Virus record (IMG/VR): IMGVR_UViG_3300047272_000070 | Location: 1-28,411 of that record | Direction: 5' to 3' (one strand) | Length of the DNA stretch: 28,411 bases | Source: a virus | Lineage: Duplodnaviria > Caudoviricetes | Shown here: piece after piece, positions 8,115-21,580 of the stretch | How positions within the stretch are numbered: the first letter of the stretch is position 1 | How the letters are laid out: the number at the start of each line of letters is the position of its first letter | Translations under genes and position numbers: made by a program | The notes under the pieces: model-generated | What the model was told of the DNA's origin: nothing | Databases searched by the model: none | What the model saw: only the letters and a program-made list of their open reading frames with translations

Positions 8115-8921
8115 ATGGCAAACTACACATTATCATATAGCGAATCATCACAGGGGTGGCCATCGTTCTACTCCTTCAATCCAGACTACATGATTGGGAT
8201 GAACAACTACTTCTATACCTTTAAGGGTGGAAACTTGTATCGTCACAATGTGAATGAGACCAGAAATAATTTCTACGGAGTTCAGTACAACTCAAAAATT
8301 ACAAGTGTCTTTAACATGTCAGCCCTTGAGAACAAAATATTTAAGACTCTTAACTTAGAGGGAAACAGTGGATGGGCTACGTTAATGGAGACTGATATAC
8401 AAACTTCTGGATTCATTGAGGCTGCTTGGTATGAGAAGAAGGAAGGATCTTACTTTGCTTTCGTTAGAAATGCAGGGACCATCCCGGCTAATCCATCTGA
8501 GTATGCTCTTAGATCAGTCAATGGTATTGGCTTAAGTCAGAACGTAACAGGATCTGCATCAGCATTGAACGTATCGTTTCCTATTAGTCCAAACCTAACT
8601 GAGATTGGAAGCATTGTAAGTGTTGGAGACTACTTGTACTACAGCTTGCCACCTAGTTACAGTACGCCAATATTGTGTGGTCAGATTACTAGCATTGTAG
8701 TTGATTATCCAGCAGGCAATAACAGAATTGTAGTTAATGCGTCAATAGCTGGAGGTGGTATCCCACCTATAACTACCCCATTCTTTATGTATATTAAGGG
8801 ATCGGTAGCGGAGTCGCATGGAGTTCTTGGACACTATTGTATATTTACATTAGAGAACAATAGTACTACTAAGGTAGAGCTATTTGCAGTGGAGTCTGAA
8901 GTAATGAAAAGTTATCCTTAA
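8115..8921 (+). CDS. Structural protein resembling the C-terminal part of the muzzle/stabilisation protein
   Basis: 268 aa; 'TLSYSESSQGWPSFYSFNPD', 'NNFYGVQY', 'KIFKTLNLEG', 'KKEGSYFA', 'VELFAVESE'. Confidence 0.65.
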   Translation: MANYTLSYSESSQGWPSFYSFNPDYMIGMNNYFYTFKGGNLYRHNVNETRNNFYGVQYNSKITSVFNMSALENKIFKTLNLEGNSGWATLMETDIQTSGFIEAAWYEKKEGSYFAFVRNAGTIPANPSEYALRSVNGIGLSQNVTGSASALNVSFPISPNLTEIGSIVSVGDYLYYSLPPSYSTPILCGQITSIVVDYPAGNNRIVVNASIAGGGIPPITTPFFMYIKGSVAESHGVLGHYCIFTLENNSTTKVELFAVESEVMKSYP

Positions 8922-8931: not shown

Positions 8932-9342
8932 ATGGCAATATCAATTAGACCAATTACAGCAAGTGATTACGATAATATCCTATTGAAATGGTGGAATGAC
9001 TGGGAGTGGGTGGCACCTCATAAAGATTTCTTACCGGCAGATGGAGAAGGTGGACTAATTGTTTTTGATGGTGACGAACCAGTATGTGCTGGTTACATGT
9101 ACACCACGAACTCAAAGGTTGCATGGGTTGACTGGATAATATCTAGTAAGACCTACAGAAAGAAACCAACAAGAAAGGAGTGTATAGATTTATTGATCTA
9201 CACGCTTACTAGTATTTGCAAAAGCACTGACCATAAGTACGTCTATGCTTTGATAAAGAACAGAAACCTTATAGGTACATACCAAAAATTTGGGTACATA
9301 CAAGGAGATTCATACACAGGTGAAATGATAAAAGTATTATAA
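8932..9342 (+). CDS. GNAT-fold acetyltransferase-like protein
   Basis: 136 aa; 'ISIRPITASDY' start, central beta strands and a 'LIGTYQKFGY' GNAT motif-B-like end. Its position before the ejection proteins is typical of podoviruses. Confidence 0.6.
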   Translation: MAISIRPITASDYDNILLKWWNDWEWVAPHKDFLPADGEGGLIVFDGDEPVCAGYMYTTNSKVAWVDWIISSKTYRKKPTRKECIDLLIYTLTSICKSTDHKYVYALIKNRNLIGTYQKFGYIQGDSYTGEMIKVL

Positions 9343-9343
9343 C

Positions 9344-10189
9344 ATGGCCCCATTTACTACAATCGCAGCAGGAGTCGGACTAGCTACCTCTTTAGGTACA
9401 GCAGGTGCATCTTTTGGCAATGCAAGAAAAATGATGAGAGAGAATAAGAAGGCTAACGAAGCAGCCGCCAGATCTCTTGCTGAAGCAAAAAAGAAAATGA
9501 ATGTCAACTATTATGAACAACTTGGTATACAGACCGGTGTTTATGAGACAGCTGCTAGACAAGCAAAAAGCACAGCTGCTGATTTGATTAGGGCAGCACA
9601 GCAGGGTGAAGGCCGTGGCGTAGGAGCTGCTGCTGGACAAATATATGCTGCTGGATTAGAAGGACAAGAGAATGTAAGGGCTAGCATGGCTGAGGATCTT
9701 ATGGGTCTAGATAAACTAGTTGCTGCTGAGGATTCTAGAATTGCCGGTGCATTAGCAGGTCTTGATTTGCAAGCGGCTGAAGGTGCACAACTTGCTGCTC
9801 GTGATGCTCAAAGAGCTGCGGCATCTGCAACAACAGAAGGAATGCAGTCACTACAAAGTGGTGCTCAACAACTTTATGAAGCAGCTCCATTGTTTGATAA
9901 GTCTCAAGGTATGAGACAGTTTGAAAAACTCAAGGGGTTAGCAGCAAAGGAAGGACTTAGTCAGGAGCAACTTCAAAATAGATTGGTAGAATTTGGAAAA
10001 CTTAACCCACAGTTTGGACAATTGTCTGGGGTTGGATACACCGCTACAGGATTAGATGCTCAAGGCAAACCTATTCAAGGACTAATGACTCCTTTTGCAT
10101 TTCAAGATTACTATGCTACTCAGGGCAAGAAGTTTGGTAAGTCATTGCTTGATCCGTTTAGTTTATTTTTACAGAATTATCCTAAATAA
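9344..10189 (+). CDS. Probable internal virion/ejection protein
   Basis: 281 aa; hydrophobic Gly/Ala N-terminus followed by Ala/Gln-rich coiled coil. Confidence 0.6.
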   Translation: MAPFTTIAAGVGLATSLGTAGASFGNARKMMRENKKANEAAARSLAEAKKKMNVNYYEQLGIQTGVYETAARQAKSTAADLIRAAQQGEGRGVGAAAGQIYAAGLEGQENVRASMAEDLMGLDKLVAAEDSRIAGALAGLDLQAAEGAQLAARDAQRAAASATTEGMQSLQSGAQQLYEAAPLFDKSQGMRQFEKLKGLAAKEGLSQEQLQNRLVEFGKLNPQFGQLSGVGYTATGLDAQGKPIQGLMTPFAFQDYYATQGKKFGKSLLDPFSLFLQNYPK

Positions 10190-10191
10190 TA

Positions 10192-11919
10192 ATGGCAACA
10201 TATTATAAATACGCTGAGAGGCAGGCTGATAGTTTCGTAAACTGGGCAGAGATTGGTAAGGATATTACCGACATGCTCAAGACCGAAACAAATCTTCGAG
10301 AACAAAAGAAGGCGGCCATTGATAAGGCCTCAAGAGATTTCGGAGAACAGCTAGCAAATGCCCCTACTGGAGAGCATACTGGTATAAATGCGTGGACACT
10401 AAACTATGCAAGTGATGCACAGCAGGCTAGACTACTTCAGGACAGACTATTAAAGTCTGGTGGCCTTAGCGTGAAGGATTACACCATCATGCGTCAAAAC
10501 ATAAATGATGGTACCGCTCAGTTGTTTGCCCTTTCTAAGGAATACCAAGAGGAGTTCAAGGTAAAGATGGAGCGTATGAAAAGTGCTGACCCAGCAACTA
10601 GATCTCAGGAGATGGAAACATTTCTTATGGAGACAGTTGAAGGTTTTGCTAACTTCTCGAAGTCTAAGCCTTTGATTAATCCTACTGACTTTACTGTTAG
10701 TGTTGGTATCATGGAGTCAGACCCTAACAACCAAGGGGTATTAAGACTTACTGATCAGGTAGAGACTGTTAACTATTTACGAAACAGAATCAAGGGTAAG
10801 TATGATTACTTTGATTCAAATGCAGCGACAGATACCATAGCTAAAAGTCTTGGTCAATATATTAAAGCAGAAAAGGATGCTGATGCTTTGAATGGTATTA
10901 TTACCACCACTGCTGATGCTACAGCTAGACCGGGATTTAGTAAGTACTTAGAGGACAAAGTGAAATCATATTTAGAGAATCCATACAACGTGAGTTCTGT
11001 ACTTACCGATGACATTGGTGGATTTACTTTTTCTTTTACTGATAAGTCTGGAGGAAATGTTATATTTTTAGAGCGAGATCCACAGTCTGGAATGGTCAAG
11101 CCTGTATTTACTGATGATCAGAAAAAAGCGGCATCTGACTTCCTGATTGGAGAATCAAAACAGAAGATTGATTACGAACAGAAATTGAATCCATACACTC
11201 TTCAGCAACGTCAAGTAGTAGCAAGCAGTGGAGGCGGAGGAGGAAGAACTCAGGCCAATGCTGTTTCATTGTGGATGGATGTTTATTCTGCTGCTAACTT
11301 AACTGACAAGACCACAGCAAAAAGTGCATTGCTTTCTACCGAGGCAGCAAAAGATAATGGTGTGATTGATATTAAGTTTGCTAAAGATGAAGCAGGTAAT
11401 CAAACAATTCAATTTGTAAATTCAGATCCAGCATTTACAACAAACCCAGTTATATTTAGATATGCTAATGGTACAGCAATATCTCCAGATGCATGGGCAG
11501 CTATTGGGGCTGAGGTTACAGGAGAGACTGATAAGAGAAAATTACAGCAAGCCGCTTCTAATAAAACATTCTTTGACATAGGTGACTGGTCTACACAAAT
11601 TGGCACTACATATCAAGGAGAGGAAGACTTCATACCAAAAGCTACTGAGGCATTGAATGCAGGCATAACTTCTGGATTATTTGCTCAAAGCTCAGCGAAG
11701 ACTGCTTCTTCCCTTCAGGCTATATTGGGTAAGGCTGGGTTTACTGTAACAGATACTGGGGGTTCTACTGGTAACTCAATGGAAGTATTAGCTCCTGGAG
11801 AAACAGTTCCTTTATTAATCAATAGTAGAGAACCAGCAGATAGACAAAAACTTATTGATTGGGTAACTGCAAAGTTAACTCAGTCTAGAGCACAGAAATT
11901 AGCAGCACCAGTTAGTTAA
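10192..11919 (+). CDS. Probable internal virion/ejection protein
   Basis: 575 aa; helical N-terminal half and a GGGGG linker. Lies between the small ejection-like protein and the giant protein. Confidence 0.55.
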   Translation: MATYYKYAERQADSFVNWAEIGKDITDMLKTETNLREQKKAAIDKASRDFGEQLANAPTGEHTGINAWTLNYASDAQQARLLQDRLLKSGGLSVKDYTIMRQNINDGTAQLFALSKEYQEEFKVKMERMKSADPATRSQEMETFLMETVEGFANFSKSKPLINPTDFTVSVGIMESDPNNQGVLRLTDQVETVNYLRNRIKGKYDYFDSNAATDTIAKSLGQYIKAEKDADALNGIITTTADATARPGFSKYLEDKVKSYLENPYNVSSVLTDDIGGFTFSFTDKSGGNVIFLERDPQSGMVKPVFTDDQKKAASDFLIGESKQKIDYEQKLNPYTLQQRQVVASSGGGGGRTQANAVSLWMDVYSAANLTDKTTAKSALLSTEAAKDNGVIDIKFAKDEAGNQTIQFVNSDPAFTTNPVIFRYANGTAISPDAWAAIGAEVTGETDKRKLQQAASNKTFFDIGDWSTQIGTTYQGEEDFIPKATEALNAGITSGLFAQSSAKTASSLQAILGKAGFTVTDTGGSTGNSMEVLAPGETVPLLINSREPADRQKLIDWVTAKLTQSRAQKLAAPVS

Positions 11920-11929
11920 ATAATAGAAA

Positions 11930-14900
11930 ATGGACGAGAAATATTTACAAGACCTGTACGGAGTAGTATTAAAAAATGATCCTTCTTACCGGCAGAAAGT
12001 TTCTTTTGATTTATTCAGAAGCAAGATGCAGGATCAGGACTATGCAGGTAGATTAACTGATTGGGTTTCTAGTGTAGACAGTACATTTAAGTCTAAGTCT
12101 TCACAGCCTGTAGTCCCTTTTAAAAAAAAAGAAGATACGGTATCGTCTTCGGTACTTGGTTCTTCGGCATCTGGGAGATTTGACCCCAGAACTGGTAAGT
12201 TAAATCAAGAGCAGCCACAGTTTCAAAGACCTCAGGACAGAGACTTCAGTGGCCTTGCTGTTGATGTAGATCCACAACTAATAACTAAGAAGCCTAGGGA
12301 AGATAGACCTGTGGTTTCTCAGGATGTTACTGCTGTAGCTAGGCTACCTAAGACTCAAACTCTTGAGGTAGAAGAGAATAAGAAGTACATAAAAGAGACT
12401 GAGAGACTAAAGAATGAGGCTCAGAATCTAGAGAAACTTAAGGAAGCTGAACAGCAAGATCTATTAAAACAGCAAAATGTTCTTGCGATTCAGGACCCAG
12501 AGTTTGGATCTCTTATTACACAGATTAATAAAGACCTCATAAACAATGAGGAGAAAGATGTAACTGACTTTTTAAATAAGCAGTTCTCAAAGTATGGTTT
12601 CCACTTTGAGTCTACTGGTGTTGGCGATGCTGTAATAGCACGAACAATTGATGGTAAAGAATTTATTGAGATTGACCTAGACCCATTCCTTGAGTCAACA
12701 GAGATTGAGGAATCAGAGAAGCTTAGAAAGTTTATCTCTAAAAATGCTCAGCCTGTATACAACTACAAAGACGAGGACTACATTACCAAGGCAGTAAGGG
12801 CTCAAAGCCTACGTGACATTGGTATGAAGAACGAAGATGGTACTGAGTCTACTGTGAAATTCACTTCATTTGAACAGGATGGTAAGCACTTTGTAATACC
12901 AACTTTGTTCCCTAAGAATACACTTAACTATACCTCAGATAAAAAAGACTGGCTTGAGTTCCCATTTGAGCAAGCCCTAAAGGAGGCAAGGTCTCGTGGT
13001 GAAGTGTTTGAGTTTGACAACGAGGCAGATGCTAAGAGATTCGCTGAAGGAGACTGGAAGAATGTAAATGCATTTGACTTAGAAGGACAAAAGCTATACA
13101 AGGAGAAAGGTCTTGACTACTATACAGAGAAGAAGAAGTTTGAGAACTACACTGCATTGCAGGATGAGGTTGAGTTGCTAGATAGGATTCTTGATAGAGA
13201 CTATATTGCTCCAGAAGAAAAGTTAAAGTACCCTCAATATTTCGCTAATGATGGTAGACCACTTTACAGCGAGAAGGAGATTGAGTCAAGGCTAGACAAA
13301 ACTGTAAAGCAGAAGGACCAATTATTGGAGCAGGTATTCGATGTTGAATTCCTAGGGATAAACGATGGGCCAGTACAGAAGACACGTGAAGAGTTTGACA
13401 TAGTACTTAGCAAGAAGCAGAAAGAGATTGAGGGTCAGGCTATCAAGCAGAACAATCAGGTGAATACTGAGCTTCAGCAGGTTAACCTTATGTCCATGAA
13501 CTTGTATGGTGTACCTATTGAGAAACTTTACACGGTAGTACCAAAGACCACTGAGGATGAGAAGACAATAAACGATCTAGTCCTTAAGACCAAGGAGTTA
13601 ATTGCTCTGAGTAAGGATGCTGCTAACAAGTTTCAGTTAGCCAATACCTACTACGATGCAAAGTGGAACAAGGCTGCCACTGAGGAGTACGAGGAGAACC
13701 TATCAGGATTCAACACAGCATTAGCGGATGCATGGCAAAATGGAAAGGCTGCTGAGCAAATATTGTTAGCTACTCTTGGCATTAAAGATGTAGATTCTAC
13801 TGCCGACAGAAAAGATATTGCAATGAAAATTGCAGAGGCATCTAGTAATCTTAGTGGTAAGCAGTCACGTGTACTTACAAGGCTAAACCTATCTAGAGAT
13901 GGTGAGTTCTTTAAGACATTCATGTCTGATCCATTGGAGGCAATGTCCACATTTGCTGCTTCTTCATTTACTCAGATACTTCCATACGGCAGTTATCTTA
14001 TCCCATCAATTGTAGGGTCAAGTGTTGCGGCAGGGGCTGCCATAGGCGGATCAGCAGCAGGTGCACCGGGTGCACTAGCAGGTGCTACCACTGGTTTAGG
14101 CTATGGTGTTAGGTCAGGTATGGCCGCATCATTCTTTGCTCTTGAATATACTAATGCCATACTTGATGTAATGAAGGAGAAGGGATATAATATCACCGAC
14201 CCACTTCAGGTTGAGAAAGGATTGATGGACGAATCAGTATGGTCTGAGGGTAGTGAGCGTGGTGTTAAGAGAGGTATACCTATTGCCCTTGTAGATTACT
14301 TGGGGGCTGGCCTAACAGGTAAAGTATTTAAGGTAAGTAAGATTGCTCCAATAGCAACAAGAGTTGGTGCACTTACTGCTGAACGTCTTGTAGTCGATCC
14401 AGCATTTGAGATGGGAGGAGAACTTGCTGCTCAGGTGTCAGCAGGTCAAGAGATTAACATGAAGGAGATTGCATACGAAGGTATGGGTGGTGTTGGTACC
14501 AATACATCTATGATGGGTATGAACATGTACATAGAATCTCGTAACCAGACTAGTGCACAGTTGGCTCTGGAGCTTACAGATATCAACGCTATGGCATCTC
14601 AAAGAGTTAGCGATGAGAGGATATCTAACTGGGCTAACAACATGCAGAAGCTTGGTAAGATTGATGCTGATGTTAACCAGAGAATCCAGCAGAATGTTGG
14701 TCTAAGAAGAGAGGCCAGAGATCTATTGTCAGTTGGTGCGGTAAGCAGACTTACTGGTAATACATCAAAGTCTGAGGCCAGAGTGATGGAGCTTCTTGCT
14801 GCTAGACAGGAGTTGACTTCTACTCAAAACAGAAGAGAGGTTAACTCAGATAAGATTAAGGCTATCAATCAGGAGCTAGCTGAATTGTCCGAGACCAAGA

Positions 14901-17900
14901 AGGTAAAGCCTAAAGAGGAGCAAGTAAACCTTGACTTAATCTTGGGTACAAAAAGAGAGGGTGTGTCTGTGTACCGCATTGGTGGTAAGACCATGACAAA
15001 GGAGCAGTTCCTGAAGGAGATTGAGAAGATGAGTACTCGTAGTTTGCTTAGGTCTAAGATCGTAGTAGACAACGATGATGAAACACAAATAGAAATACTA
15101 AACAAACAACTAGATGCCATTCAAAAGCAAACAGCAGGTCAAGTACCTGTACAGCCAGGAACCAGAGATCGCCAAGAGATGGCGCAAGGAGAACCCCAAG
15201 CAGAACCTCAAGGCATTGCCCAAGAAGGTCAAGTCCAAGAAGTAACTCAGCCTATTTTAAATAAGGACATAGAGGTAAAAGATAGTGAAGGGCAGAAAGG
15301 ATTAGTTCCTATTACTGAATTAGAAGAATTTATAGGTGAAGATAGATTAGGTGAAGCACAGATGCCTACATCTAGAGCTACTATAGATAGGTTAAAAGAA
15401 GATATCTCTAAGAATGGTTTTAAGGAACCTATTGTGCTTGTTTATGACAGGTCTAGTGGAGAAGGTGAGGCCACAATTATAGAAGGCAATCATAGAATTA
15501 TAGCTGCCAAAGAATTAGGACTTAAAGAGATACCTGTAATATTCGAGAAGGGAACAATTAGAAGCGATGAAAGCAGAGCTAAGGATAATATGTTTCCAAT
15601 TAAAAGAAAAACTGTTGGTAGTATAGATGATAGATTTGGTGTTAGAGGTTCTGATTTAGGATTAACAGTTAGACAACCTGTAGATTCAGACTTTGTAAAA
15701 GAAGGTCAAGTAGAAGTATCAACTGTATCTCCTGCTGTATCTCCAGCTGTATCTCCTACTCAGCAGTTAGACTTAGAAGGAGAGGTATCCTTACTTGAGC
15801 AGTTACTTACAGGTAATCAGCAACCAGAGCCAAGAGCAAGACTTTCAGCTGGAGTAGAAGCTCAAGATACAAGAACCAATGAAGCTGATGTTGTGTCAGA
15901 GATAAATCAAATGGCTGTTCAATCTCCAGAAGAAGCTGCTTTTGAAGGGGCTAAACCAACTGGTCAGGTTGAGGCTGGCCAAGTGGTTTCTGATAATCCA
16001 ACACCAGATAATATTAAAAAGCCATTCTTAAAAAGAATACTTAATAAGTTAGGATTTACAAAAGAAAGTCAGCTATACAGAAGGATAGAAGAATTTTCTA
16101 ACATTCCAATGATGATAGGAATATCTGATTCACTTGGAAGTGGAACTTATAAGGATGCTGCTGGTAATGATATGGAAATTGATGGAGGTTTGATGTTCAA
16201 CTTCTTTAGAAATCCTGGACTTGCATGGGCTAATGTTGATAAGAAGTTAGCTCAAAATATTGTTAACCAAGCAAAGCAAGTATACACTGCAAACAAAGAA
16301 CTGTTTGATAGATTATGGAAGGAAGGTGCACTACCTGATGGTCATATCCCATATTCAATTGTAAGGATGGGTGATGATGCCTTGTATTCAAATGAAGCAA
16401 TATTCAGATACCTATCTCCTTGGATTAAAACACTTCCTTTAGAAAATAGAAAGGCTGCTCTTGAAGTTTATAAGCAAGATTTAATGAAAGCCGCAAAGGG
16501 GCAATCTTCTAGTTCTTGGATATTTGATCTTCAGGATAATATTGACAATGGAAATATAACTGACTTCAAAGGAATTATAGATTATCTTGAGAGCCTTAAG
16601 AATTCAGATGTACCTGTAGCAACAAAAGATGCTATACAGTCATTAGAGAATAAGCTAAACAAAATAAAAGGAGAGGAAAAGTTCTCTGACTCTATTGAAG
16701 CTATTGATGAGATACTTTCAAAAAAGGCCCCTATAAGAATACTTAACTTTATAGAGGAGAAAAATATCACGACAGTAGATGGTCTTTTTGATGCAATTGT
16801 AGATGATGCTATAAGCCGAGCTAAGGGTGAACCTAGTATGCTTAGCTTACCAGTTAGAGCCATAATATCCACTAAGCTATTATCTTTAACTCCTCTTAAA
16901 AAAGATGCTCCAACAACTGAGTTTAATAAAGCTCTGCTTGGAAGAGAAAAGAATCCTCTATGGAACGATGCTAAAAAGCTAACTCTTCCATTCATTAAGG
17001 ATCAAATAAGTGAACCTGCTATGCTAAAGGCTAGGCAGGGAGACATCGTTGCTGTGATGGGTATAGATGTACGTGAAGGTTCATCAGGTGTAGAGAAGGC
17101 TCAGCATAATAATTATGGGTATGGACCTAAAGGTATGCTTATATCTTACATCAGTAATCCAACAAGAGCATTTGATGTATTTGCAGAGCTACAAGCAAAA
17201 GCACCTCGCCTACTTAAGAAAAACAAAAGTGGTATCTATCCTACAGCTGACTCTATTGTTAGACAAGCTGGTGGTACAGCATTTATAGATGTTGCTTTTA
17301 GAGGTGCTAAGATTAAACCACAAGGGCTGACTGACATTGATATTATTGTTGGAAAACTTAGAACTGCATTCCCCGATGTATCTGTATTTGATACTAAGGA
17401 AGAGTTTGATAATTTCTTACAACAAGAAGGAATAAGATCAAGAGCAGATGCCAATGGAAATGTAATCTATGGTATCACAAAAGATGGAAAGATATTTATA
17501 AACCCTGATAACTTATCATTAAGAACTCCTATACACGAGTTCGGACATATATGGGTTGATTACTTAAAATCAAAAGCATCTGGTAATAAAGGGACTGCAT
17601 TACTAAATCGTGGTCTTCAGCTTGTTGATGGTACACCAGAATACAAAGAGGCTTTAGCTAAGTATGGTCAGAGAGACATTGCCCTAGAAGAAGCATTGGT
17701 TGAGTTGATTGCAACTAAAGGGGAGACCATAGTTAATGCATCAAAGAAGAGTGAGTTTAAAAACTGGCTTAATGCATTCTTTAAGTACATCAAGGAAAAG
17801 TTTGTTACAACAAAAGAGCTATTCAAAGATAAAGACTTTGTATCTAGAATAGAGAAAATGACCTTAGATGAATTTATTAATTCATCCCTTGCTGATTTAT

Positions 17901-20900
17901 TTGGAATGGCTCAGGTCAATAGAAAGTTCAAGGCATCTGAAGCAATGGCAGCATCTAGAGCTAGGCTTGGAGAAAGTGATATTAATAACATTGTCCAGGT
18001 TGGACTTGCTAATGGAATTTCTGAGACAGCTATTCGTGAACTACTTAATAAAATAGGCTTTACTCAAGAAGCCATTGATGCTGCATTAGGTAAGGAACCA
18101 AAGGCTCCAGAGATTGAGGTACGTGAAGAAAGAGCACAGCCAGCCAGAGGTAAGTCTGAGATAGACAAGATTATATCTAAGGCAATCAAGGATGCAGGTG
18201 CTGATTTGAATGCTAAGCGAAAGGCTATTGCTGATGCAGTAAAAGGTATGTCGAAGAATGGTGGTAAGATTAATGCCAAGACTGTTGAAGCAATCATCAA
18301 GAGGGCGGAGATGGTAAACCTAAACAATCAGACTGCTGTAGATAAATTCATCTCCTATGCTGGTAAGATATTTAAAGATGCTGAGTACGGTAAGAAACTT
18401 AACGATGCAAAGGCTAAGAGAAAAACGATAAGAAGAGGAGCCAAGAGTAAAGAGGTTGCTTCAAACCTTCGTGACCTTGCCAAGCTGTTCTCAGTTATTG
18501 ATCCATCGATGGTGGAGGATATCGATAAGTACAATCAGATTGCTGATAAAATATCTGAAGCAGTAGTGGGTTCAAGTTTAAGAGGCAAGGATGGCACATT
18601 CGCTAAGATAATAAAAACAGAAGGTCTTACTGATTACATTAACGAGAATATAGAGAAGCAGCAAAAGCAAATTCTAAAAGACAAGATTGCCAGAATGAGT
18701 GAGGTTGTTGGCAAGAACTTGACTGAGGAAGAATACTTTGAAGTACTGGAATCCAGAAACAAGGATGCTAAAGTTAGCAAGGAACTGAAGTCTGCTAAGG
18801 TAAAAGAGAATGCAATAAAAGAAGTTAACATGTACAAGAGTATCGTAAGAGAGATTCTTGACAAAGATGTTAACCCTATTTCTGGAGAAGATGTAACTGT
18901 GAGTAATGCCAAGAAAAAGGTAGTTGAGAAATTCATGAGCATGGACTTGAACTTGCTTGATGTCAATGAGCTTCTTGATATGTTTGACTCACTACAAAAC
19001 TTTATTGAGAATGGGTCCACTGCAAAGATGGAATCTATTTACAGTTCTTATGTAGGCAAAGTCAATGCTACCAAAGCAAAGGGAATTGTTTCTCAAAAGA
19101 TTAAGAAGTACTTCAATGAAACTGTAGGCGAGTTCTTACTTGAGCAGTTCACATCTTTGGACCTTCTATTCGAAAGAATGTTCAAGGGATTTGAGAGAGG
19201 TGGAAAAATGATGTCTCTTGCTGGTGTGTCTGCCATAAAGAAAGGGAAGTCAACAGCTAAGGCGTTGAGTGATGCCATCGTTGATCAATACTTCAATAAG
19301 TTCTACAAGCTAACTCCAAACGGTCAGGCATTCAATACCATGTACAATACAGTTGAGCGTGGTATGCTTGCGTACATGATGCGAAATGTTATTGGTACTG
19401 AAGAGCAGGTGCAGGCTGAGTTTGATAGAAGGAAGCAACTAATTGTTGATTCAATTAAAGTCCTTGAGAAGGGTGACAAGAACCATAGACAGTTGTCTGT
19501 TGAGTATGCTAAGGCTTTCAACAAGATACTTCAAGACTCTAACACCTCAGAAGAAGTTGTTAATAAGGCTGCCCAAATCAACGTAGATGCTGTTAAGTTC
19601 TGGCAAACACAATGGGGTGATAAGTATGATCAACTCGCTGACTTGTCTGAAAACATATACAACCAGACTCTAGGTAAGGATGTGAACTATACTCCAGACC
19701 GTGTGTCTAGTATAGAAAAAGAGTCTGTATCATCTGAGACAGGTGATGAGATGGACTCACACTTGATGACGTTCCATGCCAACAACAAGACTCCTTACCA
19801 GAGAAAGACAGGTGTATTGATGACTCCTGTTATGGATGATACTCTTCCTAAGAAGTCTTACATAAACTTGTCTTTTGATTCTAACAATGCCAACTCAATG
19901 TATGATGCATTGGTCGACTTGAATACTGCTGGCCCTATACGACAGGTGTCTGCGTTCTTTAACTCTCCTGAGTTTGATCAGATTGTTCCTGACCTTACTG
20001 ACAGAAAGATTCTAAGATCAAGAGTAAACTTGTTTATTCGAAATATTCGAAACAAGAATCCTTATGAGAACGATAGTTTTGCTAAGGCGATTAGAGCACT
20101 CCAGAATGTTGCGGCATTGGGTACCGGTCAAATACTTGCAGGCCCTACTCAGATACCAAAGCAAACTATCCCAGTTATTATAAATACCATCATCAATGCT
20201 GGTGGCATAGACTTGGCTGCTCCTTTCAATGAGGATAAGAACAACTTCATGAACAGGTCTGGTTACTCAATAGCCTACCGTAGTGCGGCAAGCCAGAACC
20301 AAATCGCTACGCTTAATAAGATTTCTACTAGAGCGGAGACTGGTCCTGTAGGTAAAGTTGGTGATGCAATCTTTGCATTGAACGACCTTCAGTTGAAGTA
20401 CTTCTTACAGAAGCCAGATGCCTACGTTGCACGTGCATCTTGGATGTCATACTATGAGAAGTCTTTAAAGAAGCAAGGTATTGACCCTAAGACTATAGAC
20501 TACGCTACTCATGAAGTGAATGATACGGCTGCTGATTACGCTCAAAGAATGGTGGACAGACAGCAGAACATATCTGACATGGACTTGGCTGGTAAGTTTA
20601 TATCATCTAAGAACCCTGCTAACCAACTTGTAAACAAGTTGTTGTTGCCGTTCGCAAGCTTTAGAATCAACCAGTCTGCAAGACTTGGATCCGACTGGGC
20701 TACGCTAACTTCTAAGGTATCAACCAAGGAAGACAAGGCGATTGCTGCGAGATCTTTGGGTGGATTCTTTAGTGAACTAGTAACATTCAGAGCAGTATCT
20801 ATTGGTGTTACCACATTGCTTAGCTCGATGGCCTTGTCTATTGCAGGTAAGAGAGATGACGAAGAGGACCGTGAAAGAAAGAGGTCTACAGTTATGAAAG

Positions 20901-21580
20901 GTGCAACCACCTCTACGATTGTGGATACATTCTCCTTACTTCCAGCATTAGATCCCATCTTCCAATCTGGTGTAGCATTCGGACTAGATGTTGTTCAGGA
21001 CTTTTTTAAGGTATCAGAGAAGAACAGAATTCCTTTCTACGATGCAAAAGAAAAAGACTTTATTGAGCAAGCAGGTACTCTTGGAATCAGTATTGGTAAG
21101 GCTAAGCAGTTCTTTGAGTTGGTATCTCTTGCCTATACTGGACAATACACAGACGAGTACAGCGGTAAGACTAAGTACATTAAGTCCAGAGATGCAAATT
21201 CACTGAAGATGTTTGTGGTTCCTTTCTTATTGTCTCACCTTGGCATATTGCCTGGAGCACCTGAGATTGGTACAATGACTAGAATAATAATGAAGGACGT
21301 TAAGAAGGATTCTTCTACTACTCCTGGAGGGTACAAGGCTGACGAGATGACCATGGAGGATATGAAAAAGTATTTCCCCGAGGAGTATGAGAACCAATAC
21401 GGAGAAGGTAGTCCATACCGTGAGGCTAAGGAACTTGAAAAAGAAGCCAACGAAGAAAAGAAAAAGGAGGAAGAGGAATTGAAAGAGGCAATGTATGGTA
21501 AGCCTGCATCCAAGGGACGAGGAAAGGGTAGAGGACAATCAACTAGAGGGTCATCTAGAAGAAGAGAGGGAAGGCGTTAA
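11930..21580 (+). CDS. Giant polyvalent (probably virion-ejected) protein with ParB/Srx-like and zincin metallopeptidase domains
   Basis: 3216 aa. Gly/Ala hydrophobic segment near 13990-14140. ParB-like 'LKEDISKNGFKEPIVL...IIEGNHRIIAAKELGLKEIPV' near 15390-15540. 'TPIHEFGHIW...EEALVELI' metallopeptidase near 17525-17710. Long helical C-terminal region and a basic RG-rich tail. Confidence 0.8.
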   Translation: MDEKYLQDLYGVVLKNDPSYRQKVSFDLFRSKMQDQDYAGRLTDWVSSVDSTFKSKSSQPVVPFKKKEDTVSSSVLGSSASGRFDPRTGKLNQEQPQFQRPQDRDFSGLAVDVDPQLITKKPREDRPVVSQDVTAVARLPKTQTLEVEENKKYIKETERLKNEAQNLEKLKEAEQQDLLKQQNVLAIQDPEFGSLITQINKDLINNEEKDVTDFLNKQFSKYGFHFESTGVGDAVIARTIDGKEFIEIDLDPFLESTEIEESEKLRKFISKNAQPVYNYKDEDYITKAVRAQSLRDIGMKNEDGTESTVKFTSFEQDGKHFVIPTLFPKNTLNYTSDKKDWLEFPFEQALKEARSRGEVFEFDNEADAKRFAEGDWKNVNAFDLEGQKLYKEKGLDYYTEKKKFENYTALQDEVELLDRILDRDYIAPEEKLKYPQYFANDGRPLYSEKEIESRLDKTVKQKDQLLEQVFDVEFLGINDGPVQKTREEFDIVLSKKQKEIEGQAIKQNNQVNTELQQVNLMSMNLYGVPIEKLYTVVPKTTEDEKTINDLVLKTKELIALSKDAANKFQLANTYYDAKWNKAATEEYEENLSGFNTALADAWQNGKAAEQILLATLGIKDVDSTADRKDIAMKIAEASSNLSGKQSRVLTRLNLSRDGEFFKTFMSDPLEAMSTFAASSFTQILPYGSYLIPSIVGSSVAAGAAIGGSAAGAPGALAGATTGLGYGVRSGMAASFFALEYTNAILDVMKEKGYNITDPLQVEKGLMDESVWSEGSERGVKRGIPIALVDYLGAGLTGKVFKVSKIAPIATRVGALTAERLVVDPAFEMGGELAAQVSAGQEINMKEIAYEGMGGVGTNTSMMGMNMYIESRNQTSAQLALELTDINAMASQRVSDERISNWANNMQKLGKIDADVNQRIQQNVGLRREARDLLSVGAVSRLTGNTSKSEARVMELLAARQELTSTQNRREVNSDKIKAINQELAELSETKKVKPKEEQVNLDLILGTKREGVSVYRIGGKTMTKEQFLKEIEKMSTRSLLRSKIVVDNDDETQIEILNKQLDAIQKQTAGQVPVQPGTRDRQEMAQGEPQAEPQGIAQEGQVQEVTQPILNKDIEVKDSEGQKGLVPITELEEFIGEDRLGEAQMPTSRATIDRLKEDISKNGFKEPIVLVYDRSSGEGEATIIEGNHRIIAAKELGLKEIPVIFEKGTIRSDESRAKDNMFPIKRKTVGSIDDRFGVRGSDLGLTVRQPVDSDFVKEGQVEVSTVSPAVSPAVSPTQQLDLEGEVSLLEQLLTGNQQPEPRARLSAGVEAQDTRTNEADVVSEINQMAVQSPEEAAFEGAKPTGQVEAGQVVSDNPTPDNIKKPFLKRILNKLGFTKESQLYRRIEEFSNIPMMIGISDSLGSGTYKDAAGNDMEIDGGLMFNFFRNPGLAWANVDKKLAQNIVNQAKQVYTANKELFDRLWKEGALPDGHIPYSIVRMGDDALYSNEAIFRYLSPWIKTLPLENRKAALEVYKQDLMKAAKGQSSSSWIFDLQDNIDNGNITDFKGIIDYLESLKNSDVPVATKDAIQSLENKLNKIKGEEKFSDSIEAIDEILSKKAPIRILNFIEEKNITTVDGLFDAIVDDAISRAKGEPSMLSLPVRAIISTKLLSLTPLKKDAPTTEFNKALLGREKNPLWNDAKKLTLPFIKDQISEPAMLKARQGDIVAVMGIDVREGSSGVEKAQHNNYGYGPKGMLISYISNPTRAFDVFAELQAKAPRLLKKNKSGIYPTADSIVRQAGGTAFIDVAFRGAKIKPQGLTDIDIIVGKLRTAFPDVSVFDTKEEFDNFLQQEGIRSRADANGNVIYGITKDGKIFINPDNLSLRTPIHEFGHIWVDYLKSKASGNKGTALLNRGLQLVDGTPEYKEALAKYGQRDIALEEALVELIATKGETIVNASKKSEFKNWLNAFFKYIKEKFVTTKELFKDKDFVSRIEKMTLDEFINSSLADLFGMAQVNRKFKASEAMAASRARLGESDINNIVQVGLANGISETAIRELLNKIGFTQEAIDAALGKEPKAPEIEVREERAQPARGKSEIDKIISKAIKDAGADLNAKRKAIADAVKGMSKNGGKINAKTVEAIIKRAEMVNLNNQTAVDKFISYAGKIFKDAEYGKKLNDAKAKRKTIRRGAKSKEVASNLRDLAKLFSVIDPSMVEDIDKYNQIADKISEAVVGSSLRGKDGTFAKIIKTEGLTDYINENIEKQQKQILKDKIARMSEVVGKNLTEEEYFEVLESRNKDAKVSKELKSAKVKENAIKEVNMYKSIVREILDKDVNPISGEDVTVSNAKKKVVEKFMSMDLNLLDVNELLDMFDSLQNFIENGSTAKMESIYSSYVGKVNATKAKGIVSQKIKKYFNETVGEFLLEQFTSLDLLFERMFKGFERGGKMMSLAGVSAIKKGKSTAKALSDAIVDQYFNKFYKLTPNGQAFNTMYNTVERGMLAYMMRNVIGTEEQVQAEFDRRKQLIVDSIKVLEKGDKNHRQLSVEYAKAFNKILQDSNTSEEVVNKAAQINVDAVKFWQTQWGDKYDQLADLSENIYNQTLGKDVNYTPDRVSSIEKESVSSETGDEMDSHLMTFHANNKTPYQRKTGVLMTPVMDDTLPKKSYINLSFDSNNANSMYDALVDLNTAGPIRQVSAFFNSPEFDQIVPDLTDRKILRSRVNLFIRNIRNKNPYENDSFAKAIRALQNVAALGTGQILAGPTQIPKQTIPVIINTIINAGGIDLAAPFNEDKNNFMNRSGYSIAYRSAASQNQIATLNKISTRAETGPVGKVGDAIFALNDLQLKYFLQKPDAYVARASWMSYYEKSLKKQGIDPKTIDYATHEVNDTAADYAQRMVDRQQNISDMDLAGKFISSKNPANQLVNKLLLPFASFRINQSARLGSDWATLTSKVSTKEDKAIAARSLGGFFSELVTFRAVSIGVTTLLSSMALSIAGKRDDEEDRERKRSTVMKGATTSTIVDTFSLLPALDPIFQSGVAFGLDVVQDFFKVSEKNRIPFYDAKEKDFIEQAGTLGISIGKAKQFFELVSLAYTGQYTDEYSGKTKYIKSRDANSLKMFVVPFLLSHLGILPGAPEIGTMTRIIMKDVKKDSSTTPGGYKADEMTMEDMKKYFPEEYENQYGEGSPYREAKELEKEANEEKKKEEEELKEAMYGKPASKGRGKGRGQSTRGSSRRREGRR
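12118..12183 (+). promoter_or_regulatory. Candidate -1 frameshift/transcriptional slippage site (T4A9 plus hairpin) opening a short -1-frame tail
   Basis: In-frame A AAA AAA heptamer, then hairpin GTATCG-TCTT-CGGTAC at 12140-12155. The -1 frame reads RRYGIVFGTWFFGIWEI-stop (TGA 12181-12183). Confidence 0.55.
15114..15245 (+). CDS. Nested 43-aa basic protein in the +1 frame of the giant gene (MPFKS-type small phage protein)
   Basis: ATG..TAA encoding MPFKSKQQVKYLYSQEPEIAKRWRKENPKQNLKALPKKVKSKK. 36 of 43 codons end in G/C and none in T. A-rich leader. Confidence 0.75.
   Translation: MPFKSKQQVKYLYSQEPEIAKRWRKENPKQNLKALPKKVKSKK
15222..15711 (+). repeat. 13-bp direct repeats flanking the ParB-like domain
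   Basis: AAGAAGGTCAAGT at 15222-15234 and 15699-15711, 477 nt (159 codons) apart. Confidence 0.7.
15723..15758 (+). repeat. 3 x 12-bp tandem repeat encoding a (T/A)VSP linker
   Basis: CTGTATCTCCTG / CTGTATCTCCAG / CTGTATCTCCTA. Confidence 0.9.

Follow-up and report, generated by a model that had tools for sequence, protein, structure and literature searches.

The open reading frame (ORF) of 43 codons found at positions 15114 to 15245, inside a very large virion gene, is almost certainly a real gene, and the best explanation overall, which we favour slightly, is that it is a conserved small gene with its own start that encodes a basic nucleic acid-binding head protein. The window (the whole stretch of DNA analysed, 28,411 nucleotides) is a podovirus-like phage fragment, and its closest cultured relatives infect Flavobacteriia (Elemovirus, Pachyviridae and Pervagoviridae). 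The relevant features of the window are:

8115..8921, + strand: structural gene, Muzzle C-terminal-like (crAss_MUZ_C), an independent anchor
8932..9342, + strand: gene for a 136-aa protein (phrog_17252), an independent anchor
9344..11919, + strand: the two genes before the giant gene, encoding 281 aa (phrog_13764, virion structural) and 575 aa (phrog_35506)
11930..21580, + strand: giant gene encoding 3216 aa, mosaic, the terminal gene of the virion operon
15085..15113, + strand: leader of the nested gene, A-rich, G-poor, unstructured and without a Shine-Dalgarno (SD) sequence; a TAG in the small frame abuts the ATG
15113..15247, + strand: Q/E/G/P/A linker, the giant-frame reading of this segment (residues 1062–1106)
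15114..15245, + strand: nested basic gene of the MPFKS family (weak phrog_1375), in the +1 frame of the giant gene
15374..15583, + strand: ParB-like domain of the giant protein, directly after the linker; below the Pfam cut-off and present in few relatives
18410..21304, + strand: C-terminal region of the giant protein, common to many relatives including the giant of locus L232

The positional counterparts of the window giant are gp123 of phi18:3, which is annotated as structural on the basis of MS/MS, and gp88 of elemoF. A homologue of the 136-aa protein carries an acetyltransferase-like label in GenBank, and the two genes that follow lie where internal or ejection proteins would usually be encoded. 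Right after the nested gene, the GC3 of the giant gene is 0.17–0.25 compared with 0.3–0.5 elsewhere, and the region involved (15230–18000), which includes the ParB-like domain and a HEFGH motif near residue 1870, is common to few relatives, suggesting that it is an exchanged module. In two relatives (L066, coordinates 10587–11087; L036, coordinates 10811–11311), the giant gene is split in two with a 166-aa gene (phrog_16594) in between, and the nested gene is found near the end of the first of the two giant genes.

The nested ORF extends from the ATG at 15114 to the TAA at 15245 on the + strand and encodes MPFKSKQQVKYLYSQEPEIAKRWRKENPKQNLKALPKKVKSKK, a peptide with a pI of 10.4 and 14 K/R versus 3 D/E residues, in which Cys and a hydrophobic stretch are both absent. 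It is offset by +1 relative to the 3216-aa ORF (11930–21580) at giant residue 1062, where the same DNA in the giant frame reads DAIQKQTAGQVPVQP.... The coordinates, the 43-aa product and the quoted leader are all as described in an earlier note on this DNA, and a recount agrees with its statement that 36 of the 43 codons end in G or C and none in T (20 G, 16 C and 7 A). As 11 ORFs of at least 30 aa with an ATG start are present in the +1 frame inside the giant gene, the size of the nested ORF alone is not beyond chance, and it is conservation, not length, that sets it apart from the others.

The earlier note considered this codon usage to match that of the replication genes. However, the bias of the nested ORF is stronger than that of the replication genes (GC3 0.59–0.60, T3 0.21–0.23) and is better explained by the overlap, as 12 of 20 synonymous T-ending choices in the window would stop the giant frame and T-ending codons are common in AT-rich free copies of the gene. 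T3 is 0.04 in giant-nested copies and 0.07 in copies nested in a scaffold-position gene, versus 0.31 in AT-rich free copies, for which GC3 is also 0.31. The preference for G/C-ending codons is therefore mostly the price of overlap. Free homologues contain 2–10 stops in the frame one base back, the equivalent of the host frame. As the codon AAG, read one base back after a G, becomes GAA, the basic peptide and the acidic linker go together.

Searches with the peptide found matches to 22 proteins among 30 candidates, and 103 cluster representatives. An alignment scan of IMG/VR gave an estimated ~2600 matching stretches, and of the best 80, which were examined, 79 are nested at a +1 offset in an open host frame and one is free. 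This set was chosen by the peptide, and the test was repeated with two neighbouring genes as bait, using bait alignments built from peptide-positive loci and, per bait, the best 80 loci closest to the window. The 153 bait loci formed 111 clusters at 95% identity, 40 of which were dropped because less than 1200 aa of the giant was covered (5 of the 40 already show the nested ORF). In the 71 clusters retained, the nested ORF is intact in 59, decayed in one (L115), free in one (L232, 2 nt past the giant stop) and not found in the giant gene in 10. The loss of the ATG or the +1-frame stops that would have told against the earlier note are not seen in 59 of the 71. Whole records were searched for nine of the 10 giant-negative clusters, and a free copy was found 12 nt behind the giant gene in two, while no copy was found in the other seven, two of which are complete records. 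The nested ORF was also present in 4/4 loci found via the upstream flank of the giant gene, and in 2/2 loci covering the site that were found via the giant C-terminal region.

A single match was found in 48 of 50 whole records, the exceptions being one partial tandem duplicate and one weak second match. Among the cultured Flavobacterium phages of the elemo group, all 68 matching records carry the nested gene, unannotated, under a CDS labelled 'structural protein'. No MPFKS match was found in the whole records of phi19:3, phi18:3, phi38:1 and Gundel_1. As some relatives are without it, the gene is probably accessory, and its absence from these four phages and from 2/2 complete giant-negative IMG/VR records indicates that it does not encode an essential part of the capsid.

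Several variants were observed. A different short basic +1 ORF of 29–31 aa with an MPKQ start is present in the cultured Cellulophaga phages phi19:3 (gp129; L376:32060) and phi18:3 (gp123; L380:22317), with an A-rich leader and within an acidic linker of the giant gene, and may be a diverged or analogous nested gene. L384 (G018:C1:15800-16600) carries a second copy of the 3' half of the nested gene, ~260 nt further downstream within the giant gene, and the elemoF giant gene (L377:26984) has a second copy, truncated to 10 codons and preceded by the same leader, 396 nt upstream of the complete one. One nested subtype (L163, L098, L377 and others) includes two conserved cysteines at residues 12 and ~21 that replace the usual hydrophobic residues, and is found in giant and scaffold hosts alike. 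In-frame deletions in the otherwise fixed N-terminus, with loss of Pro2 or of four residues, occur in L038, L045 and L079, and both frames stay open. The MPFKS motif also forms the N-terminus of longer proteins (P0051, P0031, P0089, P0094, P0104 and P0124), followed by DUF5661 in one and by a ParB-like domain in one.

Substitutions spare the small frame and not the giant frame. For 36 sequences of the window subtype, which were picked by peptide pattern and are hence biased towards the small frame, the small frame has a pN/pS of 0.17, against 2.58 for the giant frame. This frame-specific comparison had been proposed in the earlier note, and its result agrees with the claim made there that the 'DAIQ.Q' linker is a by-product of the hidden gene. 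Three pairs that were retrieved independently of the peptide show the same pattern, the share of differences that fall at host third positions being 20/36 upstream versus 1/18 inside the ORF (L084), 27/65 versus 5/35 (L086) and 21/37 versus 0/8 (L388). Amino acid change in the giant-frame linker is faster than synonymous change. The host codon that includes the AT of the nested ATG encodes Asp in 42, Asn in 17 and Tyr in 6 cases (64 relatives and the window), and it ends in T in 65/65 against a background of 62%. Contigs of relatives from four public runs, including one from an RNA library that is a relative's and may be DNA, match the window only at ~15112–15242 and diverge on both sides. L115 provides a natural control, as the second codon of its small frame has changed and an early stop is present; the host third positions have drifted, and the giant still reads DAVQ despite the decayed small frame.

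The sequence data make it very probable that the nested gene has a start of its own. Synonymous sites of the giant gene preserve a leader that is A-rich and unstructured. Over the eight host codons 5' of the ATG, the third position is A in 382 cases where 227 are expected and G in 10 where 125 are expected, the expectation being drawn from each giant gene's own codon use. The mean folding energy of the leader is -0.8 versus -4.5 kcal/mol, and an SD-like word is present in 3/65 nested leaders. In Flavobacterium johnsoniae, A at -3, -6, -12 and -13 is reported to raise initiation (PMC6847099), and at least three of these four are found at 54/64 nested starts, 894/5767 other +1 ATGs and 195/483 real starts. 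The window leader has A at -6, -12 and -13, and T at -3. When scored with a matrix derived from real starts, the window ATG ranks 12 of 208 internal ATGs, and no other ATG in this set has a leader both nearly devoid of G and unfolded. An own start signal is thus seen at the level of the family, with the window lacking A-3. The description in the earlier note of an A-rich, SD-less leader of Bacteroidota type is borne out by the A excess and by the count among nested starts, but the T at -3 and the rank of the ATG in the window fit it less well. The TAG in the small frame immediately 5' of the window ATG excludes entry by an upstream +1 shift. No promoter-like site was found near the ORF, and scans for promoters and terminators were at chance level. 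TAnnTTTG, the Bacteroidetes-type promoter motif, is found upstream in 2/65 nested loci.

The placement of the gene was examined in an IMG/VR census with a DNA pattern for one N-terminal subtype (120 loci from 7 of 64 parts). The 115 distinct loci include 69 free copies, 45 copies nested in the +1 frame, of which three high-GC cases are doubtful, and one chance +2 call. Free-standing homologues, to which the earlier note had likened the peptide, do exist. Nested copies are found in Bacteroidota-type giants, in a scaffold-position gene between the portal and major capsid genes (40–70 codons in), and in DarB-like giants (phrog_10089) of another phage group, and every identifiable class of nested host sits in the virion operon. 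GGAG precedes the nested ATG in L083, L370 and L310 (DarB-like) and in L080 (same upstream gene family), the four loci to which this count is limited, and the neighbouring genes have SD-like leaders; the 8/8 Shine-Dalgarno count is partly circular, as five loci were grouped after the leader was seen. The L083 giant has no BLAST match to the window giant, with remote homology possible. In L302, the MPFKS gene overlaps just the end of a 130-aa gene. The scaffold-nested G043 carries its own 2856-aa giant gene without a copy, and most scaffold-nested records are short.

Free copies are present in the cultured phages Vorvolakos of Streptomyces (gp48), S-CBS2 and P-RSP2 (the last two unannotated), and members of the family occur in phages of Bacteroidota, cyanobacteria and Streptomyces, whose capsid proteins differ greatly. 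Of the 163 ORFs close to 45 free loci, 110 were scanned for context. At 18 of the 45 loci the nearest ORFs include a portal, terminase, capsid, scaffold or minor head gene, and the remainder have tail fibre (3), giant (1) or other families (7), or no match (16). Structural or packaging neighbours were identified for 22 of the 29 free loci with any annotated neighbour, and no structural neighbour was seen at 23 of the 45. The gene is also nested in genes at the scaffold position and stands free next to portal, terminase and capsid genes, which weakens the suggestion in the earlier note that the peptide is a partner of the giant protein. The small gene is likely to be a portable gene for head assembly, and larger genes would read through it as a flexible linker.

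The earlier note also described the small gene as overprinted on the giant gene, which appears to be backwards. The wider spread of two overlapping frames is usually taken to mark the older (PMC8227390). The small frame is far more widely distributed, being free in 69/115 loci and present in unrelated phages, and a host reading of the segment exists just where the gene is nested; by the usual criterion the small gene is therefore the older frame and the giant linker the newer. Birth of the small gene de novo in the giant linker, with later escape to free positions, was also considered. In trees of capsid proteins, scaffold-nested phages form one clade (SH-aLRT 96 and 98) and the elemo outgroup is giant-nested, so that nested states occur in the outgroup and in both sister clades, and in one quick tree the pair with a free copy behind the giant gene falls deep inside the nested clade. 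However, the second tree places this pair in a basal polytomy (partial sequences of less than 280 aa, which make up 40 of the 64 rows for the second tree, were left out), the peptide tree (40 columns) gave no resolved branching, and the host reading, which is narrower in distribution than the nested frame, shows no constraint of its own. De novo origin is hence improbable, and as it concerns origin alone it is compatible with the proposed head function. A giant gene engulfing a downstream gene by read-through was considered and dropped, as the L232 giant, with its free copy, shares the C-terminal region of the window giant. At least one move between host genes, or independent nestings, is needed.

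The main rival to a head role, and itself unlikely, is that the product of a real, independently started gene hits the host machinery late (ribosome, RNA polymerase or a defence protein). A family that spans such different capsid proteins would more easily have nucleic acid or a host complex as its partner, the gene is dispensable in some lineages, and the extreme N-terminus of the peptide is nearly invariant. However, placement of the gene tracks head and ejection genes at 22 of the 29 annotated free loci and not early or host-takeover regions, and the identified nested hosts are all virion operon genes. Appreciably less probable is a role as a chaperone or partner dedicated to the giant ejection protein, with nesting coupling the synthesis of the two. 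The position of the gene in the window lineage, inside the giant gene or 2–12 nt behind it, and its presence in DarB-like giants would suit such a role, but the sister clade nests it in a scaffold-position gene, leaving the G043 giant without a copy, free copies are usually found by portal, terminase or capsid genes, and the peptide is conserved among giants that can barely be aligned with one another.

Two further explanations dispense with an independent gene. The small frame could be reached by a +1 frameshift that places a basic C-terminal tail on a truncated giant, as in the database protein P0024 (1075 aa), which corresponds to the N-terminal part of a giant and ends in the MPFKS peptide, and the leader does contain A runs. 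This is very improbable. P0024 is a single record that an indel error may explain, the ATG is immediately preceded by a stop in the window and in two others of the 65, the median number of open codons upstream of the ATG is 5 or less, the ATG is kept, and free homologues begin at the same Met. The least credible explanation is that there is no second protein, and that the segment is a conserved motif of the giant protein or an RNA or DNA element. In BLAST comparisons of loci that were chosen by the peptide, no part of the giant proteins is shared more widely than this segment, but variation is concentrated at host first positions (entropy 0.81 versus 0.20 at host third positions), indels in the nested ORF come in multiples of three, and the host-equivalent frame of free homologues is interrupted by stops.

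The preferred explanation, a small basic head protein, is consistent with the predicted structure of the peptide. AlphaFold2 predicts helices at residues 6–15 and 17–26 (pLDDT 87.6), after which a conserved Leu-Pro and a Lys-rich tail follow. Aromatic positions, Pro17, Trp23 and the Leu-Pro are conserved across free and nested copies, the search pattern itself partly determining the first eight positions of the peptide, and the classes have median net charges of +5.5 to +11. Trypsin would leave one usable peptide, YLYSQEPEIAK in the window and ACYSQDNPK in elemoF. Searches of Pfam, NCBIfam and PHROG gave no named function, with no Pfam match at E <= 1 among 30 members, and no characterised relative was found by sequence or fold. 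Sequence searches of the PDB gave summed weak matches to beta-propeller repeats, which were discarded. Fold searches gave nothing informative (best PDB E 5.9; best Z 2.3 in a wide search) and the viral fold library returned uncharacterised family members alone; at 43 residues, absence of a fold match says nothing on fold novelty. A complex predicted for the peptide of a relative and the major capsid protein of that same relative scored 0.00, which is no verdict, and it is not counted as evidence. DUF3008 (PF11450) was a feature neighbour in the ESM Atlas at 0.83–0.85, below the 0.9 mark, and is carried by 10–15% of the members of those clusters. It is only a lead, and no Pfam match to DUF3008 above the cut-off was found. 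phrog_1375, for which no function is assigned, was matched by 16 of 38 members at E <= 0.01 (best 7e-7, profile positions ~17–47), the window peptide matching weakly (E 0.065), and nesting is absent from its description.

The product is small, strongly basic and encoded with head genes, as seen for small basic virion nucleic acid-binding proteins. The J protein of phiX174 is a small basic virion DNA-binding protein. By analogy, the MPFKS peptide resembles it in size, strong positive charge, aromatic residues and location in a late structural operon; no sequence or fold match of this kind came up in the searches, and the analogy is only for a possible mode of action. Judged from the sequence data, there is about an even chance that the product has a head or DNA role as a late accessory nucleic acid-binding protein.

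On the late structural mRNA, the nested gene would have a start of its own, with ribosomes initiating at the internal ATG via the A-rich leader in Bacteroidota-type phages and via GGAG in DarB-like giants, and the giant protein would pass through the segment as an acidic or polar linker. The genetic code would ease this, as Lys AAG reads as Glu GAA one base back and T is avoided. Once stop-free in the host frame, the gene could act as a cassette that fits any flexible linker. The two-helix core and Lys-rich tail may then be packaged and bind DNA or an acidic head protein, a guess from context and charge. Tentatively, the gene may be a dual-coding mobile cassette that has moved between the linkers of unrelated virion genes, namely the giant ejection gene of Bacteroidota phages, the scaffold gene and DarB-like giants, its product being a common and overlooked head component of tailed phages. 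The gene would once have been recoded to be stop-free one base back and would have donated an acidic linker to its host proteins, each move taking on the start signal of the local host group, with one copy per genome.

To our knowledge, spanins, whose two products are partners, supply most of the known embedded genes of tailed phages. As in the embedded spanins Rz/Rz1 of lambda, the small MPFKS gene lies wholly in a larger one in the +1 frame, and in both cases the DNA is shared with a flexible linker of the host protein and the small gene is often unannotated (PMC6139136). In contrast to Rz1, the MPFKS gene is not a lipoprotein or lysis gene and its host gene is not a fixed partner. An Rz1-like o-spanin was rejected, as the peptide has no Cys/lipobox and no hydrophobic stretch and the host is a 3216-aa virion gene. 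The spanin survey reports no family whose members include embedded as well as separated or overlapped genes (PMC6139136), whereas MPFKS genes occur free, overlapping the end of another gene (L302) and inside host genes of at least three kinds. For hepatitis B virus, the polymerase spacer over pre-S has been proposed to be a new linker frame over an older small gene (PMC8227390). That is one fixed overlap in one virus family as described there, whereas the MPFKS gene is portable and also free. GndA of Escherichia coli, nested in gnd, is a same-strand frameshifted microprotein inside a coding sequence (PMC11230408), and out-of-frame remodelled genes are reported to have gained parts from an alternative frame of another gene (PMC8788219). 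The host enzyme of GndA is the established gene, whereas for MPFKS it is the nested frame that selection favours, with the host reading as its by-product. No description of the MPFKS family or of its overlap was found in the accessible literature.

What sets MPFKS apart is a single family that is free, end-overlapping and embedded in different hosts, with selection on the hidden frame, and the 'DAIQ.Q' likeness between giant proteins is a shadow of the nested gene. Together, L115 (decayed), L302 (partial overlap) and G018 (partial duplicate) provide a natural series for the birth, movement and decay of an overlap. A common gene of aquatic phages has been missed, being unannotated in the 68 elemo records, MW202828, S-CBS2 and P-RSP2, and the cultured elemo phage-host pair makes its expression and function directly testable.
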